Source: a virus (Duplodnaviria > Heunggongvirae > Uroviricota > Caudoviricetes). From it: DNA of 42,114 nucleotides. The stretch lies in the IMG/VR virus record IMGVR_UViG_2875703104_000005; one strand, written 5' to 3'. Shown here piece after piece: positions 5,087 to 36,398 of this stretch. The notes beneath the pieces were generated by a model, which worked only from the letters and a program-made list of their open reading frames with translations, had not been told where the DNA came from and searched no databases. Position numbers and translations under genes: made by a program. Position 1 is the first letter of the stretch. Each line of letters starts with the position of its first letter.

Positions 5087-5103
5087 ATTACCCATTAGGT
5101 AAT
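5087..5103. promoter_or_regulatory. Operator-like palindrome ATTACC-CATTA-GGTAAT (leftward early promoter region)
   Basis: Perfect 6-5-6 inverted repeat between the repressor-gene terminator and the leftward operon start. Confidence 0.55.
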
Positions 5104-5112
5104 AGTATAGGC

Positions 5113-5138
5113 AATAAAAAAGCCGCCAGAAGGCGGCT
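5113..5138 (-). terminator. Intrinsic terminator after the repressor gene
   Basis: Stem AGCCGCC/GGCGGCT with loop, followed on the minus strand by TTTTTATT; about 20 bp past the repressor stop. Confidence 0.65.
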
Positions 5139-5159
5139 TACTTACTGAAAAATATGATT

Positions 5160-5744
5160 TTATTGTTTGTTTTTTTCGTTCTGGTTGATGACAAATTCAA
5201 TGTAACTTTCGATCTTTGCTTTCTCGGTTTCGGGTAACAATGCGTAGCGCGAGCGGTCATAGTTGATGGTCGCAGGGTCGTGCGGGTGAATCAGTAATTC
5301 ATAGCCGTGACGCCCGAATGCTGATGCAACATTCTCCAGGGTGGAAATGGAAACACTGACCTCATTGTTTAACAGGCGGCTGATTGTCACCTGGGCGACG
5401 CCGGATGCGCGGTGAAGTTTTCCCTGAGTTGAAAGGTCGCGGCTTTCGCTCATCCAGCGTTCCAGGTTGTGAGCCGCCAGCTGACCAATGTCGCTTGGGC
5501 CGACAGGCTGAAAACCTTCCTGAGAAAGCGAGCGATCGATATCAAGCCAGTTACGTGGTTTATTGGCGGCAGCTTCAATTTTTCGCGCAACCTGGTCGCC
5601 GATAACCTTCTTGCCAAGAGCCCAGCGGTTTACCAGATTTGCCTGAGTTCCAAGTTTTTCTGCCATCCGCGTCTGAACACCATTGAATTCACGGTCGATC
5701 AAGTCGTTGAGATTTTGCCTGCGGACGTCCTGGATACTTTTCAT
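5160..5744 (-). CDS. CI-like repressor with two HTH domains, no S24 peptidase domain
   Basis: 194 aa; two XRE-type HTH segments (AEKLGTQANLVNRWALGKK and ASGVAQVTISRLLNNEVSVSISTLENVA); no Ala-Gly/Ser-Lys autocleavage module. Divergent from the Cro-like gene across a three-site operator region. Confidence 0.6.
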   Translation of the reverse strand: MKSIQDVRRQNLNDLIDREFNGVQTRMAEKLGTQANLVNRWALGKKVIGDQVARKIEAAANKPRNWLDIDRSLSQEGFQPVGPSDIGQLAAHNLERWMSESRDLSTQGKLHRASGVAQVTISRLLNNEVSVSISTLENVASAFGRHGYELLIHPHDPATINYDRSRYALLPETEKAKIESYIEFVINQNEKNKQ

Positions 5745-5798
5745 TTTCTGGAAAATCGCCTCATATATGAATCAGTAGATGATTCAATTTAAAGCAAT

Positions 5799-5863
5799 AT
5801 TACCCAACAGGTAAATGCACCTCATGGGTAACTATCCTTGATTTTTGTTACCTTATGGGTGAA
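5799..5863. promoter_or_regulatory. Three-site operator cluster between repressor and Cro-like genes
   Basis: ATTACC-CAACA-GGTAAA (5799-5815), degenerate TGCACC-TCATG-GGTAAC (5816-5832), GTTACC-TTATG-GGTGAA (5847-5863). The last lies in the spacer of a plausible rightward promoter (TTGTTA 5845-5850, TATTAT 5868-5873). Confidence 0.6.
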
Positions 5864-5898
5864 TATTTATTATCTGAAATAAATATCAGGCAATAGCT

Positions 5899-6129
5899 AT
5901 GAGCGATAACGGACATTTCGATTTCAAAAAGCACTGGCTTGCACTTACTCCGGATGAGCGTGAAGCCTTCGCACAGGAAGCCGGAACGACGAGTCACTAT
6001 ATCCAGACTCACTTAACAGGTAAGCGCAAAATGCCAGGTAAAGTATTGATGAATGGGCTTTTTAAAGCCTGTAAAACAAGACAATGGCTGCGCTCAAAAG
6101 CAGAACTGGCATACTTCTTCTACTCATGA
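5899..6129 (+). CDS. Cro-like small DNA-binding protein
   Basis: 76 aa, first gene of the rightward operon, divergent from the repressor gene; followed by a tR1-like terminator. Assignment is mainly positional. Confidence 0.5.
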   Translation: MSDNGHFDFKKHWLALTPDEREAFAQEAGTTSHYIQTHLTGKRKMPGKVLMNGLFKACKTRQWLRSKAELAYFFYS

Positions 6130-6150
6130 TATCCAGCTACAACCCTCTGT

Positions 6151-6175
6151 AGACCGCCACCCGGCGGTCTTTTCA
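6151..6175 (+). terminator. tR1-like intrinsic terminator after the Cro-like gene
   Basis: Stem GACCGCC/GGCGGTC, loop ACCC, then TTTTCAT. Confidence 0.6.
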
Positions 6176-6183
6176 TATCTATT

Positions 6184-6200
6184 CGTACCTCAAAGGTAAT
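6184..6200. promoter_or_regulatory. Degenerate operator-like site CGTACC-TCAAA-GGTAAT
   Basis: One perfect half-site, one 4/6; between the tR1-like terminator and the zinc-ribbon gene. Confidence 0.3.
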
Positions 6201-6277
6201 AAAAAACCAAATCTGGTTGATCAAATTTTCCAATTGTGCAAAATAGCCAATATCAATAACAAAAAGGGGCGGAAAAA

Positions 6278-6490
6278 TTGAAGATAGTAACCAGAATGGA
6301 GGCCGCAAAAGCCGGGTTAAATCGCTATTTCACAGGAAAGCGGTGCCGTCACGGCCATCTCTCTGAAAGGTATGTTCTGAACGGAACATGTGTTGAATGT
6401 GCAATGAATAGCGCCAACCGCCATCGTAATGAATTTGCTTGTGCACTAAAGAGTGCAAGAGGGGAAACCTATGGCAAGCAGCTGGATTAA
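6278..6490 (+). CDS. Small zinc-ribbon protein in the cII position
   Basis: CRHGH ... CVEC arrangement; start ambiguous (TTG 6278 or ATG 6296); no recognisable similarity to lambda CII. Confidence 0.4.
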   Translation: MKIVTRMEAAKAGLNRYFTGKRCRHGHLSERYVLNGTCVECAMNSANRHRNEFACALKSARGETYGKQLD

Positions 6491-7301
6491 GGTTGAAGTT
6501 ATCACTCCTGATAAACCTGAAATTTTTCAGATAGCAGAAATTCTGGGTATTGATCCAGATGCTGTTCTTGGAAAGCTGGTTCGTATATGGGCATGGGCTG
6601 ACCAGCAAACAATAGACGGTAACGCTGGCAGCGTTACAAAAGGAGTACTTGATAGACTCGCTTTTATTACAGGATTTGCTGACGCCCTCATTAGCGTCGG
6701 ATGGCTTGCTTATCATGACGGCAAACTAATTCTTCCAAACTTTGAGCGACATAATGGAGAATCATCGAAAAAACGTGCACTTACGAATAGAAGAGTGGCA
6801 GAGCATCGAAAACGAGTAACGCAAAAAGTAACGCCAACAGCGTTACAAAAGGAGTTACCAGAGGAAGAGGAAGAGGAAGATATATATAAAACCCCACACA
6901 TAGCGCACGTGCGCGAGGGTGCTCCGACCAGTGAAGCGAACGGTATGCCGTTGCAGGTGGCTGAACCTGAATTTCTGGATGGCCTGAGTGAACCCATCGG
7001 GAAATTTCCGATGACCGATGGCTGGCATCCGTCGCCGGATTTTCGACGGCGTGCTGCGCTGTGGGGAACGGCCCTGCCGGAACCGGAATTTACACCTGCT
7101 GAACTTGCTGCATTCCGGGATTACTGGATGGCTGAGGGCAAAGTGTTCACGCAGGTTCAGTGGGAACAAAAATTCGCCAGGCACGTAAATCATATCAGGG
7201 GAAAATCAAAAAACGCCGGGAAAAGCGATGAGCTTGACTGGAATAACACTGACTGGATAGAAGGGGTGTGGGATGAAATCAACTCCAGAACTTCTCAATG
7301 A
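6471..7301 (+). CDS. Replication initiator / replisome organizer (O-like, DnaT-like C-terminus)
   Basis: N-terminus MASSWIKVEVITPDKPEIFQIAEILGI and C-terminal DnaT-like block (FRDYWMAEGKVFTQVQWEQKFARHV); sits directly upstream of the P-like gene. Start set at ATG 6471 with AGAGGGG RBS. Confidence 0.65.
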   Translation: MASSWIKVEVITPDKPEIFQIAEILGIDPDAVLGKLVRIWAWADQQTIDGNAGSVTKGVLDRLAFITGFADALISVGWLAYHDGKLILPNFERHNGESSKKRALTNRRVAEHRKRVTQKVTPTALQKELPEEEEEEDIYKTPHIAHVREGAPTSEANGMPLQVAEPEFLDGLSEPIGKFPMTDGWHPSPDFRRRAALWGTALPEPEFTPAELAAFRDYWMAEGKVFTQVQWEQKFARHVNHIRGKSKNAGKSDELDWNNTDWIEGVWDEINSRTSQ

Positions 7302-8049
7302 GTACGATCGCTTACGTGAGCATGGTGTTGCTGTGCATGAAGAGCGGCGTGACAGCAATGGCAAAAAGGAGCAGGTTGCTAGAATTTTCAATGAACTATT
7401 TGTCCAGTTACAGGCTGCATTTCCTGCAAGCGTTTCGACCATAAGGGAGCAGAACAAACTTAATGAATTCCGTAAGCAATGGATGCTTGCGTTTCTGGAG
7501 AATGGGATCACAACAATGGAACAGGTTAACGCTGGTATGCGCCACGCCCGCGCCAGTGAATCTCCGTTCTGGCCGTCGCCTGGGCAATTCATCAAGTGGT
7601 GCAAAGACAGCAAGATGGTTCTTGGCGTCACCATTGACGATGTGATGGCGGAGTTTCACCGGTACAGCAAGGAAAAAAGTTTATATCCTGGTGGTCCCGA
7701 AAGATTCCCGTGGCGACATCCGGTTATGTACTGGGTCGTATGTGATACCCGCCGTGCAATGTATCAGCGCCAGCTTAGCGAGATTGAGGTTGAGAAACAC
7801 GCGCGCAGGCTGCTCGATGATTGGGCGAAAAAGGTGGCTTCCGGACAGCAGATACCCGATCCGGTGATCAGCATACAGGCAAAGCCAGAACCCATGAGTA
7901 CACCTCCGGACACAGGGAGAGACGTTTACCATCCACCAGGGCGAAGTTTCGGGTGTATGCCTAACGCCGCCACCCTGGGGGGAATAACACCGGCGCAGTG
8001 GCTGATGGAGGAATACAGGCGGGGAAAGGCGGCAGGATTTATCAAGTAA
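7273..8049 (+). CDS. Replication protein P-like helicase loader
   Basis: ENGITTMEQVNAGMR ... SPGQF block closely matches lambda P; 258 aa. Confidence 0.8.
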   Translation: MKSTPELLNEYDRLREHGVAVHEERRDSNGKKEQVARIFNELFVQLQAAFPASVSTIREQNKLNEFRKQWMLAFLENGITTMEQVNAGMRHARASESPFWPSPGQFIKWCKDSKMVLGVTIDDVMAEFHRYSKEKSLYPGGPERFPWRHPVMYWVVCDTRRAMYQRQLSEIEVEKHARRLLDDWAKKVASGQQIPDPVISIQAKPEPMSTPPDTGRDVYHPPGRSFGCMPNAATLGGITPAQWLMEEYRRGKAAGFIK

Positions 8050-8054
8050 TACCA

Positions 8055-8074
8055 GCGCGATAGCGCATTTTTTT
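8055..8074 (+). terminator. Weak intrinsic terminator after the P-like gene
   Basis: Short GCGC/GCGC stem followed by ATTTTTTT. Confidence 0.35.
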
Positions 8075-8085
8075 ACGTCTTGATA

Positions 8086-8102
8086 ATTACCTGTTGGGTA
8101 AT
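8086..8102. promoter_or_regulatory. Operator-like palindrome ATTACC-TGTTG-GGTAAT
   Basis: Perfect half-sites, after the terminator that follows the P-like gene. Confidence 0.5.
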
Positions 8103-8147
8103 AAAATATTCTAAACTCTATTGATTTCGTGTCTTATGTGGTTTTTA

Positions 8148-8164
8148 ATTACCTCAGGGGTAAA
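8148..8164. promoter_or_regulatory. Operator-like palindrome ATTACC-TCAGG-GGTAAA overlapping an RBS
   Basis: Ends 3 bp before the ATG of the 8167 gene and overlaps its Shine-Dalgarno. Confidence 0.45.
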
Positions 8165-8166
8165 TC

Positions 8167-8511
8167 ATGAGAAAACAGATACAGGCTCTTGGTCGACTCA
8201 AAACAGGCCAGATGAACAAAACAGAATCTGTGTATTGCCAGCACCTTGAGCTGCGTAAACGTGCAGGGGAAATCGCCTGGTATCGATTCGAGGGTATCAA
8301 GCTGCGGTTAGCTGATAACACGTTCTATACGCCAGATTTCGCTGTGATGCTCGCCACCGGAGAGATGGAACTGCACGAAGTGAAAGGTTTCTGGACCGAC
8401 GACGCCAGGGTGAAAACCAAAGTCGCCGCAGATCAATATCCGTTCCGAATCATCGGGGTAACTGTTAAGCCAAAGAAAGCAGGTGGCGGATGGAAAATCG
8501 AAGAGTTCTGA
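8167..8511 (+). CDS. Putative PD-(D/E)XK-type nuclease (DUF1064-like)
   Basis: 114 aa; YTPDF ... ELHEVKG resembles a D-x(n)-E-x-K nuclease core; preceded by two operator-like palindromes. Confidence 0.45.
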   Translation: MRKQIQALGRLKTGQMNKTESVYCQHLELRKRAGEIAWYRFEGIKLRLADNTFYTPDFAVMLATGEMELHEVKGFWTDDARVKTKVAADQYPFRIIGVTVKPKKAGGGWKIEEF

Positions 8512-8572
8512 ATCGACGATCTTTTTAGTTATCAATGTAATCAATAAGTTATGTGGATAAGCGAGGGTAAAG

Positions 8573-9136
8573 ATGGAAAGTAATATCAAAGGGTTAGTTG
8601 CCGCCGGGCATGAGATGGCTTCGGAACTGAAAGCAGAATGTGGTGCCGTTGATATGCGCAGTGTGGCAAAGCTGATCAGCGATTTGGCAACGCAACTGGA
8701 AGTGCAACTGGTGCGTGCTAATGCGCTGGCGGCGGAGAATGCACTTGCTCGTAAAGCTGTTCAGGCATTCTGTGAGGTTGTTGGCGACAACACTGAGATT
8801 ATCTCCGAGTTGGTTGGGCAAGATGACGTTCTGGTTATTTTGAAGGCCATGAAGGCAACAGGAAATATGTCAGCCACCGATGCTTTCCTGGCTGAAATAC
8901 GTGCGGAGGCACGCAACGAGGGGATTAACTATACCGCCAGCCGTCTTGCTGCTGCGTTCAATCACGGATTTATCAATAAGTCTTTGCGTGAAGTTTTCGA
9001 CGTTACACGCATGATTTTGTCAGCGAAAGAAGAGTTGGCTAATGAAGCGCATCCGATTGATGGCCTGTCTGGTGAATATGCGGAGAAATCCCTTGAAGAA
9101 TGGGCGGAACAGATTCGCAAAGGAAGCAGCCAGTGA
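8573..9136 (+). CDS. Hypothetical nin-region protein
   Basis: 187-aa ORF with GAGGG RBS; no recognisable motif. Confidence 0.5.
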   Translation: MESNIKGLVAAGHEMASELKAECGAVDMRSVAKLISDLATQLEVQLVRANALAAENALARKAVQAFCEVVGDNTEIISELVGQDDVLVILKAMKATGNMSATDAFLAEIRAEARNEGINYTASRLAAAFNHGFINKSLREVFDVTRMILSAKEELANEAHPIDGLSGEYAEKSLEEWAEQIRKGSSQ

Positions 9137-9423
9137 ATATCGACACGACAATAACGATCGATACGCTCCTAAATACCGGTCTGGCACTTCTCGGTTGGCT
9201 TTACATCATGTCCCGTACATGGCGATGGCTGGGTTCCATTTTCCTAAAACAGTGGAAAAAACGGCGCAAACAGGAACTACGCCAGAAGGCATTAGAAGCG
9301 TTCTATGACGCATTTGAGCTTAGCCGCATTGAACCAGGTACAACAGCCAGGATAGCGACAAAAGGCGACCTGATGATAGTGATGTTCCGACAGGAGAGAG
9401 CAGAGAAAGGGGAATCAGCATGA
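9133..9423 (+). CDS. Hypothetical small membrane protein
   Basis: GTG start overlapping the upstream stop; hydrophobic segment LLNTGLALLGWLYIM; AGGAAG RBS. Confidence 0.4.
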   Translation: MNIDTTITIDTLLNTGLALLGWLYIMSRTWRWLGSIFLKQWKKRRKQELRQKALEAFYDAFELSRIEPGTTARIATKGDLMIVMFRQERAEKGESA

Positions 9424-9680
9424 AATTTTCCAAATTTTCTGAGTTGGTGAATCGTATTTTGTCCAACAACCACAGCCATCGTCGCGATATGGATGTAACA
9501 ATCGTTGTTCATTCGCCTGGCAGCATTGGTTCAACACCTTCAGTTGAGGTTCAGTCAATTCACGCTGGTTTTGATTGGGATTCCGGGAAAGTGCTTATTT
9601 TCCCATCACAGCCACTGACCACGCTAACACCAGAACTGGATGCTCTCTGTGGCGAAAAGAGAAACCAGACTGGCAGATGA
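9420..9680 (+). CDS. Hypothetical protein
   Basis: 86 aa; ATG overlaps the upstream stop; AAGGGG RBS. Confidence 0.45.
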   Translation: MKFSKFSELVNRILSNNHSHRRDMDVTIVVHSPGSIGSTPSVEVQSIHAGFDWDSGKVLIFPSQPLTTLTPELDALCGEKRNQTGR

Positions 9681-9893
9681 TGTAAGGCTATTGCGCCAGG
9701 AGGAACAGGAAAGGCGGAAAAATATAGAAAAGTTAATTTAGATTGAGCGTAACGCGAAAGCGCGGATATGCAGGGCGACAAAATCCAGAACTGAATAATT
9801 AAATTTAGCACTGTAAATAAAATCAAATCCTTAACCGGAGGGATTTCTGCACCCTCAGAACATCAGGAGGCCGTCCGAAAGGGCGGTAGTGAA

Positions 9894-10076
9894 ATGCGAA
9901 AATTCAAAATAATTATTGAAACGGGAATAGCCGGTGGAGATTTCGAGGATGAATTCGAAGTGGATGATGATGCAACACCAGATGAAATACAGGATGAAGC
10001 TAAAGATATTTTCTTTAACTACTGCAATTACTCATACCACGAAATAAAAGACGAAGAGGAAGAACAAAATGGCTGA
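9894..10076 (+). CDS. Small acidic hypothetical protein
   Basis: 60 aa, very acidic C-terminus; follows a 213-bp noncoding gap. Confidence 0.4.
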   Translation: MRKFKIIIETGIAGGDFEDEFEVDDDATPDEIQDEAKDIFFNYCNYSYHEIKDEEEEQNG

Positions 10077-10245
10077 TTTTGGTTCAACTAAATATAACGC
10101 CAGTTTTGAAGAATGGCATGAACTGTTAATGGATTATGCAGAGTTACGCGGTGGAAGTGCCGCTGATGCTGAAGCATGGCGTGATGATTATGAAGCAGGG
10201 AAAACACCGGTCGAAGCATATTGTGATGAGTGGGGCGATGAATGA
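10069..10245 (+). CDS. Small protein (58 aa), C-terminal 34 aa shared with the 10602-10829 product
   Basis: Not in the ORF track; ATG 10069 overlaps the upstream stop. Its 3' part lies inside the first copy of the tandem duplication. Confidence 0.4.
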   Translation: MADFGSTKYNASFEEWHELLMDYAELRGGSAADAEAWRDDYEAGKTPVEAYCDEWGDE

Positions 10246-10829: not shown

Positions 10830-11185
10830 GCGAGATTAATTATCAGGAAGGGCATGAAAAGGTAGGGCAGGCAAAACCAGTGGCATGGCGATATCGCTAC
10901 GTGAAAAAAGGCGTTACAGACTTTCAGGGGAAGCAGTGGGTTGGTGACTGGAAATATGTCCCGACAAAAGAGGATTGTAACGACAGACCAAACTATGAAA
11001 TTCAGGCGTTATTCACGGCCCCGCCAGCTTCGGTGACATCAGAAGGACTGGTTAAAGCAGTACGCTTCTATGAACAGGTAAAGCGCGAGAATCCGCCAGT
11101 CGAAACCGGAGCATGGAAAGACGCGGTTGACTGGGTGCTCAAAGAGGCTTGCCAGGCTGTAAACATTGGTACCAAAGGAGATTGA
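10826..11185 (+). CDS. Hypothetical protein, paralog B
   Basis: 119 aa; lies in the second copy of the tandem duplication. Confidence 0.55.
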   Translation: MSEINYQEGHEKVGQAKPVAWRYRYVKKGVTDFQGKQWVGDWKYVPTKEDCNDRPNYEIQALFTAPPASVTSEGLVKAVRFYEQVKRENPPVETGAWKDAVDWVLKEACQAVNIGTKGD

Positions 11186-11186
11186 T

Positions 11187-11960
11187 ATGAGCACTTTTAC
11201 CGACAAAGAACTGATTAAAGAAATCAAAGAGCGCATAGGCAGCCTGGACGTGAGAGACAATATTGAGCGCCGGGCTTATGAAATAGCGTTAGCCTCGCTG
11301 GAAGCAGAACCGGTGGCGTGGATGCGTGATGACGCAGATGGTCGTGAGTATAACGCTCGCAATGAATTTTCTGGTGGAGGGGGAGGAGTTCCACTCTACG
11401 CCACCCCTCCAGTGCCAGTAGTACCGGAAGAAAAACCAATGCCTAATCCTCTTAGCATGTACGCGGTTGATGCTGTTGCCGCTATTGCAGAGGTGAGAGG
11501 CTGGAACGCCTGCCGCGCCGCCATGCTTCATGGTGCCGAACCTGCAAGTAATCATGAAGAGTTGCCACTTGATTATCTCCAAGGTCAAAAAGATGGTCTT
11601 GAATGGGCTGCGCAGCTTGCAGAAGCAAATCACCCACAAACTGGCGACTGGCTTTACGATGACCCGCTGGAGCTGGCTAAAGCTATCAGAAAAGGTCCTG
11701 ACATGCCCGAATTCGATGGACCAACTCCGGTAACTCTGGATGGTTGGATAAGCTGTAGTGAGCGAATGCCTGAGAACATTCCCGGAAGTTGTAAAGAGTA
11801 TCTGGTGTTTGATGGGCTTAATAATAAAGTTCATCACGATTACTGGGTTGTCCCTGATGGAGACAGTGCGCCAGTTGCGTCGTTCTGGAATCATTACGGG
11901 GCACATGTAACTCACTGGATGCCTCTACCAGAACCGCCGAAGGAGGTTAACCGTGGCTAA
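11187..11960 (+). CDS. DUF551-like nin-region protein
   Basis: C-terminal THWMPLPEPP motif characteristic of DUF551 phage proteins; start set at ATG 11187 with AAAGGAG RBS. Confidence 0.5.
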   Translation: MSTFTDKELIKEIKERIGSLDVRDNIERRAYEIALASLEAEPVAWMRDDADGREYNARNEFSGGGGGVPLYATPPVPVVPEEKPMPNPLSMYAVDAVAAIAEVRGWNACRAAMLHGAEPASNHEELPLDYLQGQKDGLEWAAQLAEANHPQTGDWLYDDPLELAKAIRKGPDMPEFDGPTPVTLDGWISCSERMPENIPGSCKEYLVFDGLNNKVHHDYWVVPDGDSAPVASFWNHYGAHVTHWMPLPEPPKEVNRG

Positions 11961-12234
11961 CCTGCAACTTGCCGTTAAAGGTGAATACTTCGATGCCATG
12001 ATTCGCGGGGAGAAAACGGAAGAGTATCGCCTGTGTAATGACTACTGGAATAAGCGCCTCGTTAACCGTAAGTATTACCGCCTGATTATCACAAAGGGAT
12101 ATCCGAAGCGCGAAGACTTCAGTCGCAGAATTGACGTCCCGTATAACGGATATGAAATAAAGACAATCACACATCCGCACTTCGGTGATAAACCGGTAAA
12201 GGTGTTCGCGATAAAGGTAAATATTGATGGCTAA
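11953..12234 (+). CDS. Small hypothetical protein, possibly ASCH/DUF3850-like
   Basis: 93 aa; GTG start with AAGGAGG RBS; fold assignment is tentative. Confidence 0.4.
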   Translation: MANLQLAVKGEYFDAMIRGEKTEEYRLCNDYWNKRLVNRKYYRLIITKGYPKREDFSRRIDVPYNGYEIKTITHPHFGDKPVKVFAIKVNIDG

Positions 12235-12565
12235 ATCAGCAGCAGAGCGCAAAGCCGCTCAGAGAGCCAGACAAGCTGCATCTGGTGTGCGTAAGCTGGA
12301 GATTGTGCTTGATGCTCAGGAAATTGAAATTCTGGAGCGTAACTGTGCCACGCGTCGCCCCGGGCGTGCGCCTTACGAATTTGGTGAGTATATAGCGTTA
12401 CTGATCCGCCAGGATGATGCACGCGTGCACGGGCGTATAAAATCGATCAGCAGAACACGTTGCGGTAAGTGCGGCGAGAGAGTTCCAGTTAATTCATGTC
12501 CGTGTAATGGTGACTCACAATGCTGGGTGACTAAAGGCTGGCATGAAACGAAATTAATAGTGTGA
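12227..12565 (+). CDS. Zinc-finger protein in the Q position (candidate late-gene regulator)
   Basis: Basic N-terminus and C-terminal CGKCG ... CPC cluster; last early-region gene, directly followed by a 14-mer repeat, a terminator, and an operator-like site before the terminase genes. Confidence 0.4.
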   Translation: MAKSAAERKAAQRARQAASGVRKLEIVLDAQEIEILERNCATRRPGRAPYEFGEYIALLIRQDDARVHGRIKSISRTRCGKCGERVPVNSCPCNGDSQCWVTKGWHETKLIV

Positions 12566-12574
12566 CATGTCACG
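12561..12574. repeat. 14-mer TGTGACATGTCACG, copy 1
   Basis: Overlaps the stop of the zinc-finger gene, 40 bp upstream of the terminator that precedes the terminase genes. Confidence 0.6.
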
Positions 12575-12614
12575 AGTAGATTATGCATGATGAATTTGAT
12601 GGATTTTGAATACT

Positions 12615-12640
12615 GCCGCCAACTATGGCGGCTTTATTTT
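12615..12640 (+). terminator. Intrinsic terminator between the early/nin region and the terminase genes
   Basis: Stem GCCGCC/GGCGGC, loop AACTAT, then TTTATTTT. Confidence 0.65.
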
Positions 12641-12650: not shown

Positions 12651-12667
12651 ATTACCACAACGGTAAC
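12651..12667. promoter_or_regulatory. Operator-like palindrome ATTACC-ACAAC-GGTAAC upstream of the terminase genes
   Basis: Between the 12615-12640 terminator and the terminase small-subunit start; a further ATTACC half-site follows at 12669-12674. Confidence 0.5.
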
Positions 12668-12683: not shown

Positions 12684-13280
12684 ATGATGCCTGCTGAACC
12701 TAAAACCTATAAACGCAAATCAACGCAATTTAAGCCGCTCACAGCAATGCAGGAGGCTTATTGCCAGTCATACATCAAAACGCCTGAAAACCAGACTCAG
12801 GCTGCGATTAACGCAGGATTCTCCCCAAATACAGCGGCAGTTAAAGCCAGTGTCATGATGCGCGATGAACGCATTCAGAAACGGATTGCCGAGTTGATGG
12901 AGGAGCGCAACAAACGAATGCGTGTCAGTGCTGATTACGTTCTCATGCGCCTGGTGGAGATCGACCAGATGGACGTGATCGACATCCTCAACGACGATGG
13001 GAGCCTTAAACCAATCCGTGAGTGGCCGAAAATCTGGCGCACTACGCTTAGTGGCTTTGATCTGTCATCGACCATCATGAACATGAACGAGGATTCAATA
13101 GAGACAATCCTCAAAAAAATTAAATGGCCTGACAAGGTGAAGAACCTTGAGCTGATTGGTAAGCATGTTGATGTCAACGCATTCAAAGAACGTCTGGATG
13201 TTAATGTGAATGTGACAATTGCTGATCGCATAGCAGCAGCCAGGAAGCGACTCAAAGAACGTCAGGATGGTAATCAGTGA
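12684..13280 (+). CDS. Terminase small subunit
   Basis: LTAMQEAYCQSYIKTPENQTQAAINAGFSPNTAAVKA matches the Terminase_2 HTH pattern. Start set at ATG 12684 because the ORF-track TTG start (12606) would include an intrinsic terminator hairpin. Confidence 0.65.
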   Translation: MMPAEPKTYKRKSTQFKPLTAMQEAYCQSYIKTPENQTQAAINAGFSPNTAAVKASVMMRDERIQKRIAELMEERNKRMRVSADYVLMRLVEIDQMDVIDILNDDGSLKPIREWPKIWRTTLSGFDLSSTIMNMNEDSIETILKKIKWPDKVKNLELIGKHVDVNAFKERLDVNVNVTIADRIAAARKRLKERQDGNQ

Positions 13281-15814: not shown

Positions 15815-15831
15815 GTTACCTGAAAGGTAAT
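15815..15831. promoter_or_regulatory. Operator-like palindrome GTTACC-TGAAA-GGTAAT upstream of the portal operon
   Basis: 90 bp upstream of the first structural-operon ATG; core identical to the site at 36382-36398. Confidence 0.5.
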
Positions 15832-15920
15832 AATTCGCACGTTAAATGTCAACTGTCTACGATAAATAAATCATATGTGGTTAAATTGGTAATAATTTAA
15901 TTGCGTACGGAGTCATTGAT

Positions 15921-19864: not shown

Positions 19865-20302
19865 ATGATCACCGACAAACTGTTGATGTTCTCCGAAGCA
19901 CAGGCGGTAACTGATACCGCGGCTTCTACTGACGTAATCGATCTCGGTCCAATTGACGGAAAACGTCGTGATATCGGCGTGGGTTACCCGCTTGAGTTTT
20001 GGGCGCTGGTTAACACAGCCGCCGCAGCAAGCGGTGATGCAACTGTAAACATCCAGTTGCAGACGAGTGAGGATAACAGCTCATGGTCCACTATTTATGA
20101 TAGTGGCGCACTGGCAAAGGCCACCCTGACAGCAGGTAAGCGAGTTGTTTCTGCAAAGGTGCCAGCCGGTGTTCAGCGATATCTGCGTGTTAACTACTCC
20201 GTCGCAACTGGCCCACTAACGGCTGGCAAATTCACTGCGGGTATCAATCTTGATGTTGATGCCAATACGCCGTATCCGATCCGCTCAAAAGTAACTGGTT
20301 AA
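19865..20302 (+). CDS. Putative capsid decoration / structural protein
   Basis: 145 aa, Ala/Thr/Gly-rich beta-type composition, just downstream of the capsid gene. Confidence 0.4.
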   Translation: MITDKLLMFSEAQAVTDTAASTDVIDLGPIDGKRRDIGVGYPLEFWALVNTAAAASGDATVNIQLQTSEDNSSWSTIYDSGALAKATLTAGKRVVSAKVPAGVQRYLRVNYSVATGPLTAGKFTAGINLDVDANTPYPIRSKVTG

Positions 20303-31264: not shown

Positions 31265-31265
31265 G

Positions 31266-32114
31266 ATGAAAAAAATAAATTTGTTTGGCATTGTGCTTTC
31301 AATAGTCGCTGTAAATCCTACAGCCGCCAGTTCATTGCAATGCAATAAGGATAACTTTGATGCATGCAAAACGTGTGAACAATTATCAAAGGCTATCGAC
31401 TTAAAAGAACCTAATCGCGGCGATTACTATAGAGGGGCTTTATGGAATGGGCTTTACGTCTCCTATGTAATTAATTGCCCTGTGGTTGCTGAGAAGTTAT
31501 TGAGCCATGGTGCTATACCATCATATGGCGGATATATGGGGTCTATGGGGGCGGTTCTGACAGGGAAATGGCCTCATAACAATGAATCAATAAATCTTTC
31601 ATGGGCAGATTTGCTTATAAAACATGGGTTTGATGTTAATAAGCATACTGGGCATTATAAATCAGCTACTGAGGTATGGGCTATAGATAAAAAACAGATT
31701 GAATATAAGTCAGTGTTTGACAAGTTAATTCAATCCAGCGAAGTAAAACCACTCGATCCTTCAAGAAATTTAGAATGGTGTGCGTCTGAAGGGTATCGCT
31801 CAGTTGTCGTTTATTCCCTTAACTCATGTATAGAAAATGCTATAAAACGTTTAGATGACGGTGTTTCTTCAGCGTCTGATATTTCATCCGCAGCCGTAAA
31901 TTCATGTACTAGCGATGTAGAAAATTTCAATAAGCATTTGTCATGCAAATCAGCTGTTAAAGAAAATTCTGATAAAGAGAAAAGAAACGTTTATCAGTTA
32001 TTAACCAGTGATAGTCAAATGAATAAAAATGTTATGGATATGCTGAAGGAAAGAAATATTGAAACGGTTCTTGAATTCAGAGCTGAAAATCGTGCAATGA
32101 AAACTTCACAATAA
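31266..32114 (+). CDS. Secreted protein of unknown function (low-GC moron)
   Basis: 282 aa; N-terminal signal peptide (MKKINLFGIVLSIVAVNPTAASS), several Cys, possible ankyrin-like repeats; markedly AT-rich compared with flanking genes. Confidence 0.5.
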   Translation: MKKINLFGIVLSIVAVNPTAASSLQCNKDNFDACKTCEQLSKAIDLKEPNRGDYYRGALWNGLYVSYVINCPVVAEKLLSHGAIPSYGGYMGSMGAVLTGKWPHNNESINLSWADLLIKHGFDVNKHTGHYKSATEVWAIDKKQIEYKSVFDKLIQSSEVKPLDPSRNLEWCASEGYRSVVVYSLNSCIENAIKRLDDGVSSASDISSAAVNSCTSDVENFNKHLSCKSAVKENSDKEKRNVYQLLTSDSQMNKNVMDMLKERNIETVLEFRAENRAMKTSQ

Positions 32115-32191
32115 TAAAACATCTGTTCTGGATTGCGCCACTAATAAACCAGGTGGATCCGGTGATGAAGTAATTTTATAGAGGTGCTTAT

Positions 32192-32488
32192 ATGGATATT
32201 AAAGAGTTTAGTGAGTTAGAGAGACGCTATGAGCAAGCTAAAACGAACCGAGCTATAGGGGCATTTATTGGCGGCGGTGGGGTATTTGCTCTGTTAGCCG
32301 ATTTTTTATGGGATGTTGCGAACCCAATATCAATAGGGGTATTAATAGGCGGCGGACTTGTTTTTTTTGCTGTATGCCACGAACAGGTTCGAAGTTCATT
32401 AAGAAAGTTGGATGAAGAATGTTATTTGAAGTATGGCAAGTCTTACTCTCAATCATTCCATGAAATTTTTAAAGACAAATATAATTAG
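32192..32488 (+). CDS. Small two-transmembrane protein (low-GC moron)
   Basis: 98 aa; two Gly-rich hydrophobic helices (AIGAFIGGGGVFALL; ISIGVLIGGGLVFFAV); GAGGTG RBS; AT-rich. Confidence 0.5.
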   Translation: MDIKEFSELERRYEQAKTNRAIGAFIGGGGVFALLADFLWDVANPISIGVLIGGGLVFFAVCHEQVRSSLRKLDEECYLKYGKSYSQSFHEIFKDKYN

Positions 32489-32836
32489 TTAGTGGCGGGA
32501 GAAATAGTACACACGGAAATAAGTTACCGTCATAATCAACCGTGTCGATATCGATACGGTTGATGTTTCAATACTTTCGCGGATTACAGGGCAGACTTTG
32601 TTTGGCTGAATGCTTGAAAGCCAAGCCGCAAACTTACGAAAGGCAAGGCATATCATTAACTGTTTACCGCCAGCAGAAGGTATTTCGATTTCCGAAATAC
32701 CTTTGACAAATCTCTGTTTTAATTTAACAAATTGAGCAGCCCAAACCATACCCATGCCTTCAACGATAGGTTTCATTGGGGTGTACGGTTCGCCGTTGTG
32801 ATTGACGACATAAAGCTCTGCGCCGTGTAATGGCAC
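32489..32836 (-). pseudogene. Probable truncated remnant of a phage regulatory / anti-repressor-like gene
   Basis: 115-aa ORF whose N-terminal two thirds look like a conserved phage domain and whose C-terminus is low-complexity; abuts the moron and the inverted-repeat leader. Confidence 0.3.
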
Positions 32837-32983
32837 GTTGATAGTAGTGACAAATTTGAAACATCGCTGGTTGTAAGCCAGCAGATGCTCGTTATTTTAC
32901 GTCGCGGCACAATTTCTCGCTGCTGGCTCTTTTACACACATTAACCAAATATGGTTGATTTTAATGTTTGTCTGTGTCTATCA

Positions 32984-33000
32984 TTACCTTTGCGGTAAAT
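32984..33000. promoter_or_regulatory. Operator-like palindrome ATTACC-TTTGC-GGTAAA at the start of the left anti-repressor leader
   Basis: Marks the start of the inverted-repeat leader that precedes the Bro-N anti-repressor gene. Confidence 0.5.
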
Positions 33001-33090
33001 TTACACCGCACTCCTCTTGTGCCATAGTAATCGGGCACTGGCAAAATCCAGTGCCGGGATTGGCGTCCCGGATTACTAAAAGGCGCATTC

Positions 33091-33110
33091 ACCGCGCAAG
33101 CGGTTTTTTT
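33091..33110 (+). terminator. Leader terminator / attenuator upstream of the Bro-N anti-repressor
   Basis: Stem ACCGC/GCGGT with GCAA loop and a 7-T run, about 100 nt downstream of the operator-like site. Confidence 0.5.
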
Positions 33111-33267
33111 ATGCGTATAGCACGGCCACATTCGTATTATGGTGGGCTGTGTGGGGGCACCGAAAGGTGCGCCGGGTCCTTTTAGCCGGTTACGCCAACC
33201 CTGCACAGTTCACCACCAACCGATTGGCGTCGGTAGTGGTGATTAACCAGACTAAAAGGTAACCACT

Positions 33268-33963
33268 ATGACAGCTACAAAAAGCACGTCCATTTTTTCT
33301 TTCGAATCTCAAGCCGATATACGGGTAATCGTCATTAATGGTGAGCCATGGTTTATCGCTTCAGATGTTTGTCGGGCTATAGGCATAGCAAACCATCGAG
33401 ATGCTGTTCGAAAACTTGATGATGATGAGAAGGGCGTCGCTTCAACCGACACCCCTGGCGGTGAGCAAGAATCGATCATTATCTCCGAGTCAGGCCTCTA
33501 CACACTGATCCTCCGCTGCCGCGATGCGGTGACACCAGGCACTATCCCATACCGCTTTCGTAAATGGGTTACAGGTGAGGTTCTTCCTCAGATCCGCCGC
33601 ACCGGAAGTTACATTAAAAACTCGCTCCCGCAGGAAGAACGCATAAAGATGGTTGCCGACCAGGTAGCCAACGCCACGGCGTCAGCAGTAATGCAGGCGA
33701 TGAAGATAGAGAACAAAACCTACAGTGCCCCGCTGAAGCCCGGCTACCGCAGCCTGATTCATTCGCCGTCGGGTGTTCTCGGCCTGACGGAGAACTCACT
33801 GCTGATGAATCTGCTGAACCAGTTACAGGAAGACGGGCACGACGTATCGGGCGCGGCGGCGGAACTGACCACCATGTTCTGCTACATCGTCGGTGTGAGC
33901 AAATGCCTGCGTGATATCCAGACGCACGCGGAGTACATCAACGACAAGGCAGGGTTCTTCTGA
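33268..33963 (+). CDS. Anti-repressor, Bro-N N-terminal domain with shared C-terminal domain
   Basis: 231 aa; Bro-N pattern (IRVIVINGEPWFIASDVCRAIG ... ESGLYTLILRCR); C-terminal 80 aa identical to the C-terminus of the 35074-35730 product. Confidence 0.7.
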   Translation: MTATKSTSIFSFESQADIRVIVINGEPWFIASDVCRAIGIANHRDAVRKLDDDEKGVASTDTPGGEQESIIISESGLYTLILRCRDAVTPGTIPYRFRKWVTGEVLPQIRRTGSYIKNSLPQEERIKMVADQVANATASAVMQAMKIENKTYSAPLKPGYRSLIHSPSGVLGLTENSLLMNLLNQLQEDGHDVSGAAAELTTMFCYIVGVSKCLRDIQTHAEYINDKAGFF

Positions 33964-33990
33964 CGGGCGGCGGCACAGGGATGTGCCTTT
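33721..33990. repeat. Inverted repeat, anti-repressor C-terminal domain, left arm (partner 35048-35316)
   Basis: About 240 bp coding the shared 80-aa domain plus about 25 bp of 3' flank; only about two mismatches seen. Confidence 0.8.
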
Positions 33991-34034
33991 AAATAATTCT
34001 GTACAGATTGCAGACTGGGGGTGAATAGCGTACT

Positions 34035-34051
34035 ATTACCTCAAGGGTAAG
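34035..34051. promoter_or_regulatory. Operator-like palindrome ATTACC-TCAAG-GGTAAG upstream of the moron
   Basis: 59 bp upstream of the ATG at 34110. Confidence 0.45.
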
Positions 34052-34109
34052 AAAGCATTTTTAATCTTCCCTTCAAAACGCGTCCTGTAGCCAAACATGG
34101 GAGGACGAA

Positions 34110-34742
34110 ATGAGAACAAATACAACAAGAAAAGCGATGCCATACATTATCCCAGAAGCAGATTTCGATAGAAAACTGAACATGTCTGAGAAGAACACTA
34201 GTCACACCGAAAGCTACTTAGCGAAAGGTGTGGTTGATTTCGTTCTTCCGGGATTCACAACACCTTATGGTTATCGCCTTGTAAAATCTTGTAATGGCGA
34301 TCATTACAGAATGATTACTACCAGCGATACTCCAGAAACGGTGTATGCGGTTAAGTTAATCTTTCGGGAAGATATCGTCGAAGCCAAAAGAACATGTACG
34401 CAGATCATGGTATGGCGTACGCCTAATGTTATTCATGACCGTGCTGTTCATGGTTTGCCTCAGATTTTTTTTCAGTTCTTCCTAGAGCAATATGCGATCG
34501 TTGTATCTGATGAGCAACAAACAATCGATGGGAGAAGATTCTGGGAAAGAATGATTTCTTGGGCTATAAACACCCCAGGATATAATGTATACGTTTCAGA
34601 TGGCTCTGAAGAAGATAGACCTCTTAGCTTCATGACATCATGGGATGATTTCTATAGCCAGTGGGCTGATTTCTGTTGGGGCAGTGATAAAGATGTGCAT
34701 ACCCACAGACTACTGGTTATAAGCAAAGATAAACTGCATTAA
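34110..34742 (+). CDS. Hypothetical moron protein with its own operator-like site and terminator
   Basis: 210 aa; GGAGG RBS; operator-like palindrome 59 bp upstream; strong terminator immediately downstream; lower GC than the core genome. Confidence 0.5.
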   Translation: MRTNTTRKAMPYIIPEADFDRKLNMSEKNTSHTESYLAKGVVDFVLPGFTTPYGYRLVKSCNGDHYRMITTSDTPETVYAVKLIFREDIVEAKRTCTQIMVWRTPNVIHDRAVHGLPQIFFQFFLEQYAIVVSDEQQTIDGRRFWERMISWAINTPGYNVYVSDGSEEDRPLSFMTSWDDFYSQWADFCWGSDKDVHTHRLLVISKDKLH

Positions 34743-34745
34743 TAG

Positions 34746-34770
34746 AAGCCCGCAGCGCGGGCTTTTTTGT
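34746..34770 (+). terminator. Intrinsic terminator after the moron
   Basis: 8-bp stem AAGCCCGC/GCGGGCTT, loop AGC, then TTTTTT. Confidence 0.7.
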
Positions 34771-34840
34771 GGACGAAACAAAAGTCAGTGCTACACTCAT
34801 TGACGCCACATTGAGGTGGCTTATAGATGGAAATTTCACA

Positions 34841-35002
34841 ATGAAAAAAGCATTTGCTGCACTGTTCGTTTTGTTGTCTCTGGTAGCTTCAACTCAGGCC
34901 TTTGCCGGTCGTTGTCAGCACGACAGCGATACTGCCGCTGACGGCTCCCGCTGCGGTGGGCGTTCTGCGGATTCCCGCCCAGGCGGCGGTGGCATTCGTT
35001 AA
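34841..35002 (+). CDS. Small secreted Gly/Arg/Cys-rich peptide (53 aa)
   Basis: Signal-peptide-like N-terminus MKKAFAALFVLLSLVASTQAFA; weak RBS, so tentative. Confidence 0.3.
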   Translation: MKKAFAALFVLLSLVASTQAFAGRCQHDSDTAADGSRCGGRSADSRPGGGGIR

Positions 35003-35024
35003 AAACAAGGCCGCGAAAGCGGCC
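35001..35024 (-). terminator. Intrinsic terminator after the AntA-type gene
   Basis: Stem GGCCGC/GCGGCC, loop GAAA, then TTGTTTTT on the minus strand. Confidence 0.55.
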
Positions 35025-35038
35025 TGTGACATGTCACG
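35025..35038. repeat. 14-mer TGTGACATGTCACG, copy 3
   Basis: Immediately 3' (plus strand) of the hairpin that terminates the AntA-type gene. Confidence 0.6.
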
Positions 35039-35047
35039 ATAGTTTCG

Positions 35048-35316
35048 TTTTGCACGTCCCTGTGCCGCCGCCGTCAGAAGAACCCTGCCTTGTCGTTGAT
35101 GTACTCCGCGTGGGTCTGGATATCACGCAGGCATTTGCTCACACCGACGATGTAGCAGAACATGGTGGTCAGCTCCGCCGCCGCGCCCGATACGTCGTGC
35201 CCGTCTTCCTGTAACTGGTTCAGCAGATTCATCAGCAGTGAGTTCTCCGTCAGGCCGAGAACACCCGACGGCGAGTGAATCAGACTGCGGTAGCCGGGCT
35301 TCAGTGGGGCACTGTA
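35048..35316. repeat. Inverted repeat, anti-repressor C-terminal domain, right arm
   Basis: Reverse complement of 33721-33990 with about two mismatches. Confidence 0.8.
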
Positions 35317-35730
35317 TTCTTTTTTGTCTTCCAGCTTGATCGCCTCCATAATGGCGGGCATGAAGCCTGACAAGACCTTCTCCACCTTTGTTTCTTGTTG
35401 TCTTAAACGTTTCTCGCATTCAATGAAGTATCGGCGTATCTGGCGGCCTTTTTCGTTGCGCTCGACCATCGCAGTTTCTTTGGCCGTATCGAGGGTGAGG
35501 TGATAGTCTTTGCTACGGCGATCGCCTCCTCGACCTTTGATTTCCCGATTTGGGGAAACCAAAATATAGTCCTGATTTTCAACGAAACCATATTCAGCAA
35601 TGCGTTCTGTAATCCACGATGCAAAGCGTTTACCTACCCCAAGAAAAGTATGTAAATCGCGAGCATTAACGAGAAGAGTGGTTTCGTTGGCGATAGTGCC
35701 GTTGAATACGGGGATGAGTTGAGCGTTCAT
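35074..35730 (-). CDS. Anti-repressor, AntA-type N-terminal domain with shared C-terminal domain
   Basis: 218 aa; AntA-like N-terminus (LIPVFNGTIANETTLLVNARDLHTFLGVGKRFASWI); C-terminal 80 aa identical to the Bro-N paralog; GGAG RBS. Confidence 0.7.
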   Translation of the reverse strand: MNAQLIPVFNGTIANETTLLVNARDLHTFLGVGKRFASWITERIAEYGFVENQDYILVSPNREIKGRGGDRRSKDYHLTLDTAKETAMVERNEKGRQIRRYFIECEKRLRQQETKVEKVLSGFMPAIMEAIKLEDKKEYSAPLKPGYRSLIHSPSGVLGLTENSLLMNLLNQLQEDGHDVSGAAAELTTMFCYIVGVSKCLRDIQTHAEYINDKAGFF

Positions 35731-35888
35731 GATGGCGTCTCCACTTAGCGAATTACATCACCACCGCTGAGACCAATCAGATGGTGGTGAACTGAACGGA
35801 GTTGGTCTTACCGGCCTAAGTGGTACCGGCGTCCTTTCGGACCCCCATTCAGCCCACCATAATTCTGGCATGACTGTGCTATACGCAT

Positions 35889-35910
35889 AAAAAAACCACG
35901 TCTGGCGTGG
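35889..35910 (-). terminator. Leader terminator / attenuator upstream of the AntA-type anti-repressor
   Basis: Stem CCACG/CGTGG with a 7-T run at the equivalent leader position; stem sequence differs from the left arm but pairing is preserved. Confidence 0.5.
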
Positions 35911-36000
35911 TATGCGCCACTTAGTAATCCGGGAGACCAATCCCGGCACTGGATTTTGCCAGTGCCCGATTACTATGGCACAAGAGGAGTGCGGTGTAAA

Positions 36001-36017
36001 TTTACCGCAAAGGTAAA
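36001..36017. promoter_or_regulatory. Operator-like palindrome TTTACC-GCAAA-GGTAAA at the start of the right anti-repressor leader
   Basis: Mirror copy of the 32984-33000 site, in the right-arm leader driving the minus-strand AntA-type gene. Confidence 0.5.
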
Positions 36018-36047
36018 TATAAGCACTCCACTTGGTAATTACAAACC

Positions 36048-36320
36048 TTATCTGGTTTGTTTTCGTAATTGTTCGGCACAATAGTCGAGATGTGTTTGCA
36101 GATCCCGCATAGACATCTGTGAGCTGGTGACGTAGTTAATCAGTGCAGTCAGTTCGGCAAGTGGACCATCGACATTAAATCCATCCTTATCGAGATCCCG
36201 GAGTAATTTCATCAAGTGCGATCCCTCCACCAGTGACCTGACGCCTCCCGGCGTGTGAATCCTTTCGGTAAATCCCTCTTCCAGTGGATAGTGATACTGC
36301 TGCATCTTAATCTTCTCCAT
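36048..36320 (-). CDS. Small anti-repressor-like protein behind a LexA box
   Basis: 90 aa; homologous to the shared C-terminal domain of the two large anti-repressors (PL--G----IH-P-GV ... ELT ... RD-QTH--Y spacing conserved); consensus LexA box 8 bp upstream of its ATG. Confidence 0.6.
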   Translation of the reverse strand: MEKIKMQQYHYPLEEGFTERIHTPGGVRSLVEGSHLMKLLRDLDKDGFNVDGPLAELTALINYVTSSQMSMRDLQTHLDYCAEQLRKQTR

Positions 36321-36327
36321 GCAATAA

Positions 36328-36343
36328 CTGTATATTTATACAG
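36328..36343 (-). promoter_or_regulatory. LexA box (SOS operator)
   Basis: CTGTATATTTATACAG with flanking A/T matches CTGT-N8-ACAG; 8 bp upstream of the ATG of the 36048-36320 minus-strand gene. Confidence 0.75.
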
Positions 36344-36381
36344 TAGCAAATAATTTGTTTGCTATCCAGCACGTTTTGAAA

Positions 36382-36398
36382 ATTACCTGAAAGGTAAT
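36382..36398. promoter_or_regulatory. Operator-like palindrome ATTACC-TGAAA-GGTAAT between the LexA box and the tailspike gene
   Basis: Perfect half-sites, 104 bp upstream of the tailspike ATG and 39 bp from the LexA box. Confidence 0.5.

Follow-up and report, generated by a model that had tools for sequence, protein, structure and literature searches.

The 42,114-nucleotide stretch of DNA held in IMG/VR as virus record IMGVR_UViG_2875703104_000005 (hereafter the window, meaning the whole stretch at its full length) contains repeated copies of a 17-bp palindrome, ATTACC-N5-GGTAAT. These copies raise the question of whether a single DNA-binding protein governs nearly every transcription unit of a temperate phage, early and late, as a first-pass annotation of the sequence had proposed. 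Judged by its sequence, the window is an Escherichia coli prophage of the genus Uetakevirus, the temperate podophages of the epsilon15/phiV10/ZX5 type; positions 4500-9000 are 98.6% identical to Escherichia phage vB_EcoP_ZX5 (ZX5) and 97% identical to TL-2011b and phiV10. The palindromes are very probably operators of the prophage repressor Rep (5160-5744, minus strand), placed at nearly every transcription unit.

Recurrence and placement of the palindrome

The exact 17-mer occurs in three copies in the window (0.00 expected), and 16 matches are found when up to two mismatches are allowed, compared with 1.09 expected and a shuffle maximum of 4. The core TACC-N5-GGTA is present at 12 positions (5025, 5087, 5799, 6184, 8086, 8148, 12651, 15815, 32983, 34035, 36001 and 36382), compared with approximately one expected, and two weak sites in the interval between rep and the Cro-position gene are added to these. 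An operator weight matrix was built from the sites of epsilon15, Tyrion and BUCT711 only, so that the window was kept out of the motif definition. This matrix gave the 12 cores 15.6-23.4 bits, followed by the sites at 5847 (12.3 bits) and 36614 (11.5 bits), with all remaining matches at or below 6.5 bits; at a threshold of at least 10 bits there were 14 matches in the window and 0.5 in shuffles.

All 12 cores lie in non-coding DNA, which makes up 7.5% of the window (binomial P ~3e-14), on a gene map drawn from the ZX5, phiV10 and epsilon15 annotations; this call hinges on a terS start at 12687 (as in epsilon15 and ZX5), not at the TTG at 12606, and on leaving the open reading frames (ORFs) 4822-5040, 32961-33206 and 35758-36081 out of the genes. 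Because an inverted duplication holds one copy in each arm, the sites at 32983 and 36001 do not count as independent.

The recurrence described by the first-pass annotation, which had slightly undercounted it, is thus real by comparison with both shuffled sequence and coding DNA. The sites that it listed are retained, with 32984 corrected to 32983 and the strong site at 5025, which had been overlooked, added. Two of its gradings are reversed: the 6184 site, rated degenerate, belongs to the strong class (15.6 bits), and the 5847 site, rated near-perfect, is degenerate with three mismatches. The site at 5816 is degenerate as described, with four mismatches. The three-site layout reported between rep and the Cro-like gene holds, with 5799 as its only strong member. 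The sites at 5816 and 5847 are credible mainly because stronger sites stand at the same positions in epsilon15, SPC32H and BUCT711 (for 5816, at 33357, 34406 and 6401, respectively).

Rep and the annotated repressor sites of epsilon15

Rep matches the Rep protein of phage SPC32H over its full length (5D50_A, E 4e-42, residues 1-190), and the first ~70 residues are the best conserved part. Pfam HTH_3, a helix-turn-helix (HTH) family, was found at residues 106-147, and the C-terminal part aligns with the dimerisation and tetramerisation region of SPC32H Rep. No S24 (LexA-like) autocleavage domain was found in Rep by the Pfam search, which gave HTH families only. Operator clusters flank the rep gene on both sides. 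SPC32H Rep binds DNA with its N-terminal domain, dimerises through its middle domain and tetramerises through its C-terminal domain, to which the antirepressor Ant also binds (PMC9986798), and it sits as a tetramer on palindromic sites, with its pairs of DNA-binding domains coming from different dimers (PMC9638917). Its repression mechanism has been described as 'not been extensively characterized' (PMC9638917; PMC9986798).

The epsilon15 RefSeq record (NC_004775 / AY150271) carries seven protein_bind features labelled 'repressor / lysogeny', all of which read (A)TTACC-N5-GGTAAT. They are annotated before terS, gp3/portal and the tail fibre gene (one each), before gp37, the first gene of the leftward operon (three), and before ruvC (one). 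The window has sites at all of these positions, namely terS, gp3/portal, the tail fibre gene, the first PL gene and the post-replication gene. The epsilon15 orthologs of the 12651, 15815 and 36382 sites are 11-27, 2931-2947 and 19895-19911, each annotated as repressor-binding.

Furthermore, six relatives were scanned (ZX5, phiV10, epsilon15, Tyrion, SPC32H and Klebsiella phage BUCT711), and each genome gave 14-17 matches of at least 9 bits, mostly at a conserved set of positions. This set includes terS, the portal operon, the ant/tailspike interval, the accessory antirepressor where present (orthologs of the 36001 site lie at ZX5 2042, phiV10 20496 and Tyrion 21392) and a position just upstream of int. 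It also includes a 62-bp pair at the leftward promoter PL, an abutting 17-bp pair with a third site in the OR cluster, one site behind the cro terminator and a 62-bp pair behind the replication genes. A lysis-cassette site is present in phiV10, epsilon15, Tyrion and SPC32H, where an extra gene separates the cassette from the tailspike gene; the 300-bp gap before the lysis cassette of ZX5 has no operator site. The positions are kept although Rep identity to the relatives drops to 42-45%, and in BUCT711 they are kept with Rep 45% and portal 60% identical to the window proteins. In alignments of the DNA upstream of the portal and tailspike genes, the operator forms a conserved island beside non-alignable upstream DNA. 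All 37 of the 37 phage records with a Rep homolog are genus members, and no heteroimmune genus member, with the same late genes and another repressor, was found.

Conservation also bears on whether the palindromes act as RNA hairpins, such as processing or termination signals, given that each site can fold into a stem of 5-7 bp with a loop of 3-5 nt. However, these folds have low stability (-3.6 to -5.9 kcal/mol, z -0.8 to -3.1), a U-tract is missing from the majority, and the stem TTACC/GGTAA is fixed across ~90 sites in seven genomes without compensatory changes. In addition, several sites lie upstream of predicted promoters and so would not be transcribed. A function as RNA hairpins is scarcely credible on these grounds.

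The half-site and the N-terminal domain in Pseudomonas phages

The half-site is also found beside a repressor of different architecture. Pseudomonas phage PseuP_224 is a lambda-like siphophage whose cI protein resembles Rep over its first 65 residues only (39% identity), with 23 invariant columns in the N-terminal domain. The Pseudomonas cI proteins are ~245 amino acids (aa) long and have a different C-terminal part with GNSMEP, read as an S24-type motif. In the 43-kb PseuP_224 genome, ATTACC-N4-GGTAAT is present beside cI only, in two copies downstream and three upstream (10905-10946, 11767-11821). An IMG/VR locus search, with the alignment led by the Pseudomonas N-terminal domain, found 18 more Pseudomonas-type loci, whose N-terminal domains share as little as 53% identity with that of PseuP_224. 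With one exception, these carry TTACC-N4-GGTAA at -74, -35, ~+800 and +826 from the repressor start; in the exception, the most divergent locus (L107), the -75 site is retained and a pair lies near +1000. Rep-type loci, encoding repressors of 190-195 aa, have N5 sites. A protein search with the 73-aa N-terminal domain gave near-identical fragments only.

The half-site tracks the Rep N-terminal domain across two repressor architectures, and the motif is therefore tied to that domain. Spacer length is seen to follow the rest of the protein, with N5 in the Rep type and N4 in the Pseudomonas cI type. The genome-wide spread of operators, as judged across these loci, is a trait of the Uetakevirus lineage and not of the DNA-binding domain. 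These comparisons provide computational support for the reading of TTACC by the N-terminal domain.

A host transcription factor might be thought to bind the motif. The half-site of CpxR is GTAAA, to which the right half of the palindrome, GGTAAA, bears a superficial similarity with no specific support. However, the motif is an inverted repeat and not a direct repeat, it is present in phages from four host genera and tied to a phage repressor domain in five, and its N4 form in Pseudomonas phages is found only beside a repressor with the homologous domain. Binding by a host factor is accordingly most improbable, and Rep is retained as the predicted reader.

Promoter layout and proposed control

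The promoters given here are consensus matches, which are no proof of function and which in this case agree with conservation. The 62-bp OL1/OL2 pair at the predicted promoter PL (Table 1) is kept in all relatives. On the other side of rep, OR2 and OR3 abut on the rep-facing side of OR1. The position of the 6184 site is kept in relatives at ~337-341 bp from OR. A further palindrome, CTGAAATAAATATCAG, lies at 5874-5889 directly after the predicted PR -10; it is LexA-box-like, with A/T where T/A is normal, and it is kept in Tyrion (CTGACATAAATATCAG) and absent in epsilon15, SPC32H and BUCT711.

The first-pass annotation had placed one site in the spacer of a plausible sigma-70 promoter. The candidate with the 8086 site in its spacer, TTGATA-16-TAAAAT, matches the consensus in the window, but its -35 is not kept in epsilon15 or Tyrion, and an inner promoter beside 8148 is likelier. 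This preferred promoter of the DUF1064 gene consists of TTGATT (8120), 17 nt and TTTAAT (8143), with the 8148 site on its -10/+1 and the 8086 site 62 bp upstream. It is built like PL, and the build is conserved in Tyrion.

These layouts suggest how Rep could act. A single N-terminal HTH domain of Rep would recognise each half-site, (T)TACC. A Rep tetramer has two pairs of DNA-binding domains, and operators would therefore often be paired; the predicted pairs abut at 17 bp in OR and stand 62 bp (~6 helical turns) apart at PL and at the DUF1064 promoter. In a lysogen, Rep on operators at or near the starts of approximately ten transcription units would keep the whole lytic programme silent. The units covered would be PL, PR/PRM, the replication genes, the nin-type region, terS-terL, the portal-to-tail operon, the tailspike and lysis genes, two accessory antirepressor cassettes and one accessory cassette. 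DNA damage would strip LexA from the 36328 box, Ant would be made, and Rep would be pulled off the DNA. The predicted route of induction is through LexA-controlled Ant and not through CI cleavage.

A second palindrome near the operators

A second, unannotated 14-bp palindrome, AACCATATATGGTT with the core ACC-N6-GGT, is possibly new and is here called M2. It stands beside most Rep operators other than those of OR, within the core promoter or a short way upstream of it, and it is kept throughout the genus. A matrix trained on M2 instances of epsilon15, Tyrion and BUCT711 gave six top matches in the window (11.9-22.5 bits), each with its centre 19.5-52.5 bp away from that of an operator. In all seven genomes these distances cluster at ~19.5, 40.5-43.5 and 52.5 bp (2, 4 and 5 helical turns), and in 55 distinct immunity regions from IMG/VR, 71 of the 101 M2-like matches are 19.5 or 21.5 bp from an operator. 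At PL the spacer is filled by M2, as it is at the DUF1064 promoter. In the portal, tailspike and lysis promoters, M2 extends into the -35 region and lies 7 nt upstream of TAATAA, TAATAG or TATAAT. It is absent at OR, terS and 34035, and it is unannotated in the epsilon15 record.

A fixed position of M2 relative to the -10 elements was rejected, because this position shifts by 7 and 14 bp among the three promoter classes; M2 therefore keeps phase with the operator and not with the polymerase elements. The consensus sequences of IHF, CRP and DnaA were also compared with M2, by eye, and none of them fits. A degenerate M2-like sequence, AACCGTAAATGGTG, lies at 38964-38977 at the tailspike/lysis junction, where no operator is present in the window. 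At this junction, those relatives in which another gene intervenes carry a lysis promoter with operator and M2, and the lysis genes of the window stand directly behind the tailspike gene.

A two-motif promoter code in the genus can be suggested tentatively, as one possibility that the phasing brings to mind. M2 might be a second dock for the Rep tetramer at single-operator promoters, or it might be a site at which a second regulator sets early/late timing. If true, either role would explain how late promoters are silenced from an operator 65-80 bp upstream.

Rep or another regulator at the late operons

Several points weigh against the assignment of all sites to Rep. At the portal and tailspike promoters, and at the lysis promoters of relatives, the operator centre is ~65-80 bp upstream of the likeliest start, and simple occlusion of polymerase is not evident; for these promoters to be repressed, a partner site or looping would be required. 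No convincing sigma-70 promoter was seen at the terS site at 12651. The 'repressor' labels of epsilon15 are annotation of the record and are taken as given. Overexpression of the identical repressor of ZX5 lowered holin and endolysin transcripts by >99.9% (PMC9782041), which is compatible with direct late repression but indirect, because a block of early genes would also abolish late transcripts. Finally, Cro-like or other phage proteins may share the operator sites.

Two phage proteins come into question. The Cro-position protein (5899-6129) had no match in PDB, Pfam and NCBIfam searches and might also read the operators, or else M2; the Cro-position ORF of PseuP_224, which is unannotated and encodes 76 aa (11851-12081), showed no similarity to it. 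The second is a gp49-like 'transcriptional regulator' (12224-12565, phrog_536), also without a match in Pfam, NCBIfam and PDB searches, which could be a late regulator. Its gene lies directly upstream of the strong terminator at 12615-12632, the 12651 operator and terS.

The late sites might thus be used mainly by one of these two proteins, for timing or activation, with Rep acting at OL and OR only. The distance of ~65-80 bp from the likeliest start is an activator-like position, M2 accompanies the sites in helical phase, and the same DNA-binding domain uses only OL and OR in the Pseudomonas relatives. However, the late sites are among the best matrix matches (19-23 bits) and are indistinguishable from the OL sites, the half-site tracks the Rep N-terminal domain and not the Cro-position protein, and the epsilon15 record labels the late sites as repressor sites. 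Use of the late sites mainly by another regulator is therefore unlikely, though of the rival explanations it deserves the most weight. Rep homology, the clusters flanking rep, the link between half-site and domain and the epsilon15 labels support the proposal of one repressor with operators at nearly every unit, early and late. From these we infer that Rep would bind at each site and repress the late operons directly.

Operators, antirepressor cassettes and module borders

The gene order of the window and its structural genes are those common to Uetakevirus. The integrase gene (1-1251) is followed by early-left genes, rep, replication genes, nin-type genes and terS/terL, and then by head and tail genes, an accessory region, the tailspike gene and the lysis genes. 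Host yfgI and yfgH stand behind the att core, and the window is therefore an integrated prophage that carries ~1.2 kb of the E. coli chromosome on its right. At the other end it begins exactly at the int start codon, so that the int-proximal operator ATTACCYTAAAGGTATA, present in all relatives, is cut off.

The accessory region contains an inverted duplication of an antirepressor cassette, in which 32974-33243 corresponds to 35757-36026 and 33708-33966 to 35071-35329. Bro-N is encoded in one arm (33268-33963) and AntA in the opposite arm (35074-35730). Complementarity is 76-87% between the leaders and 96% between the 3' ends, with a Rep operator at the start of each arm and a terminator-like hairpin within each leader. 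Bro-N and AntA together with the LexA-controlled Ant therefore give three antirepressor-type genes in the prophage.

Homology breakpoints against epsilon15, SPC32H, ZX5 and BUCT711 lie on operators or a few bases from them (15816, 5042 and 32984; also 8053 and 5780), and the operators therefore mark borders of mosaic modules. The palindromes could on this basis be primarily recombination linkers, kept for module exchange, since some breakpoints fall exactly on operators and the inverted duplication of the antirepressor cassette starts at one. However, operators at the starts of units stand at natural module borders, so that the coincidence is expected as a by-product. A linker function also leaves unexplained the 17-bp and 62-bp pairing, the overlap with promoters and the OL/OR clustering in unrelated Pseudomonas phages, and it is very unlikely to be the primary one. 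The coordinates of the features are given in Table 1, in which the operators are predicted sites of Rep.

Table 1. Operators, M2 palindromes, promoter elements and neighbouring genes in the window
Feature	Position	Strand	Sequence	Details
Operator OL1	5025..5041		GTTACCGTTGAGGTAAT	Overlaps -10/+1 of predicted leftward promoter PL; 19.2 bits
Predicted PL	TTGACA 5068, AATTAT 5040	-		17-nt spacer; consensus match
M2	5046..5059			In PL spacer; weak in window, strong in Tyrion
Operator OL2	5087..5103		ATTACCCATTAGGTAAT	62 bp from OL1; centre ~-61.5 relative to PL
Terminator	5120-5139			Operators are often just behind terminators
rep	5160..5744	-		194 aa; N-terminal DNA-binding domain, middle HTH_3-type domain, C-terminal tetramerisation region
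Operator OR3	5799..5815		ATTACCCAACAGGTAAA	Strong site closest to rep
Operator OR2	5816..5832		TGCACCTCATGGGTAAC	Degenerate, 5.7 bits; abuts OR3, 17 bp centre to centre
Operator OR1	5847..5863		GTTACCTTATGGGTGAA	Degenerate, 12.3 bits; in predicted PR spacer, after conserved cTTGATTTTT
Cro-position gene	5899..6129	+		76 aa; phrog_35 'transcriptional repressor'
Terminator (cro)	6151-6170			
Operator	6184..6200		CGTACCTCAAAGGTAAT	13 nt past cro terminator, upstream of replication genes; 15.6 bits
M2	6205..6218		AACCAAATCTGGTT	4 nt after operator 6184
Operator	8086..8102			Upstream member of 62-bp pair; before DUF1064 / nin-type region
M2-like	8130..8143		TGTCTTATGTGGTT	4 nt before operator 8148; Tyrion has AACCGTATATGGAT there
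Operator	8148..8164			Downstream member of 62-bp pair; overlaps -10/+1 of TTGATT/TTTAAT promoter; 3 nt before ATG 8167
Terminator	12615-12632			Behind gp49-like regulator gene
Operator	12651..12667			Between terminator behind gp49-like regulator gene and terS
Operator	15815..15831			Upstream of gp3/portal late operon; conserved island in 5 genomes
M2	15869..15882		AATCATATGTGGTT	Centre 52.5 bp from operator 15815
M2	32943..32956		AACCAAATATGGTT	41.5 bp from operator 32983
Operator	32983..32999			At start of Bro-N antirepressor leader; copy of 36001 site by inverted duplication
Operator	34035..34051			Upstream of phrog_1349 / phrog_3117 accessory cassette; window-specific site
Operator	36001..36017			At start of AntA-type antirepressor leader, leftward transcription
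M2	36044..36057		AACCTTATCTGGTT	41.5 bp from operator 36001
ant	36048..36320	-		90 aa; small antirepressor; SPC32H Ant homolog (5D50_E, E 6e-47)
LexA box	36328..36343		CTGTATATTTATACAG	Perfect; ant promoter, 8 nt from ant start; conserved in 5 genomes
Operator	36382..36398			Divergent ant / tailspike interval
M2	36424..36437		ATCCATATATGGTT	40.5 bp from operator 36382, upstream of tailspike gene
Weak operator-like match	36614..36630		CTGACCTTAACGGTAAC	Inside tailspike gene; 11.5 bits; uncertain candidate
attR core	40937-40953		attgagtgggaatgatt	Prophage right end
Host yfgI	41044-41583	-		DUF5384
Host yfgH	41599-42114	-		Glycine-zipper lipoprotein

Comparison with known systems

The global repressor operator system of the window is an already known, annotated system of the epsilon15 genus, with a repressor family that has solved structures and a known LexA-Ant route of induction. 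In epsilon15, which belongs to the same genus, the consensus ATTACC-N5-GGTAAT is identical and the positions are orthologous, and the window Rep is 42% identical to epsilon15 gp38. The epsilon15 record lists seven sites; scanning puts the number at 12-16 per genome, with the OR cluster and the int-proximal and lysis-promoter sites among them. Compared with epsilon15, the window has extra sites at its two accessory antirepressor cassettes and at one accessory cassette. The first-pass annotation had called such control unusual for a lambdoid phage. However, the phage is epsilon15-like and not lambdoid, and the arrangement is the conserved, annotated state of its genus. A full-text literature search for the motif or for operators of the genus surfaced only the ZX5 paper (PMC9782041), which has no operator description, and the present map of ~14 sites applies to phiV10-like E. 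coli prophages. These phages serve as O157 reporter phages and alter O-antigens, which gives a map of silencing practical value.

The Rep-Ant-LexA switch between lysis and lysogeny in SPC32H was reportedly described by Kim & Ryu in 2013 and Kim et al. in 2016, with structures in PDB entries 5D50 and 5D4Z. The window resembles it in its Rep and Ant homologs, in the LexA box before ant and in the lack of an S24 autocleavage domain, and a tetrameric repressor fits the paired operators. The window differs from SPC32H in its two additional antirepressor-type genes (Bro-N and AntA), each of which has its own operator.

A likeness to P1 C1 and to the stoperators of mycobacteriophages had also been proposed, and it holds for the many operators dispersed over the genome and not for the form of the sites. 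In P1, one repressor, C1, acts on operators dispersed genome-wide over many operons, with antirepressors in the circuit. The operators of P1 are 17-mers without symmetry, to which C1 binds as a monomer, and the late genes of P1 also need the activator Lpa. In contrast, the sites of the window are palindromic, and their predicted reader is an unrelated HTH protein. When PDB, Pfam and NCBIfam were searched with Rep, the matches were SPC32H Rep and HTH families, none of them named C1, with no direct comparison to C1 made. In Cluster A mycobacteriophages (L5 gp71), stoperators provide many repressor sites outside the immunity region and silence the lysogen genome-wide. These are asymmetric 13-mers that are oriented with transcription, lie within operons and block elongation, whereas the sites of the window are symmetric, and the strong ones are all intergenic, at the starts of units and beside promoter elements.

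As in the lambda CI system, rep and the Cro-position gene diverge from an interval that contains three operators, a further cluster stands beyond rep, and cooperative pairing is likely. Unlike lambda, the window has a repressor with no RecA-dependent cleavage domain and has operators at late operons as well, with 8 of its 12 strong sites outside OL/OR. The restricted, lambda-like layout is seen instead in the Pseudomonas phages, which share the DNA-binding domain only.

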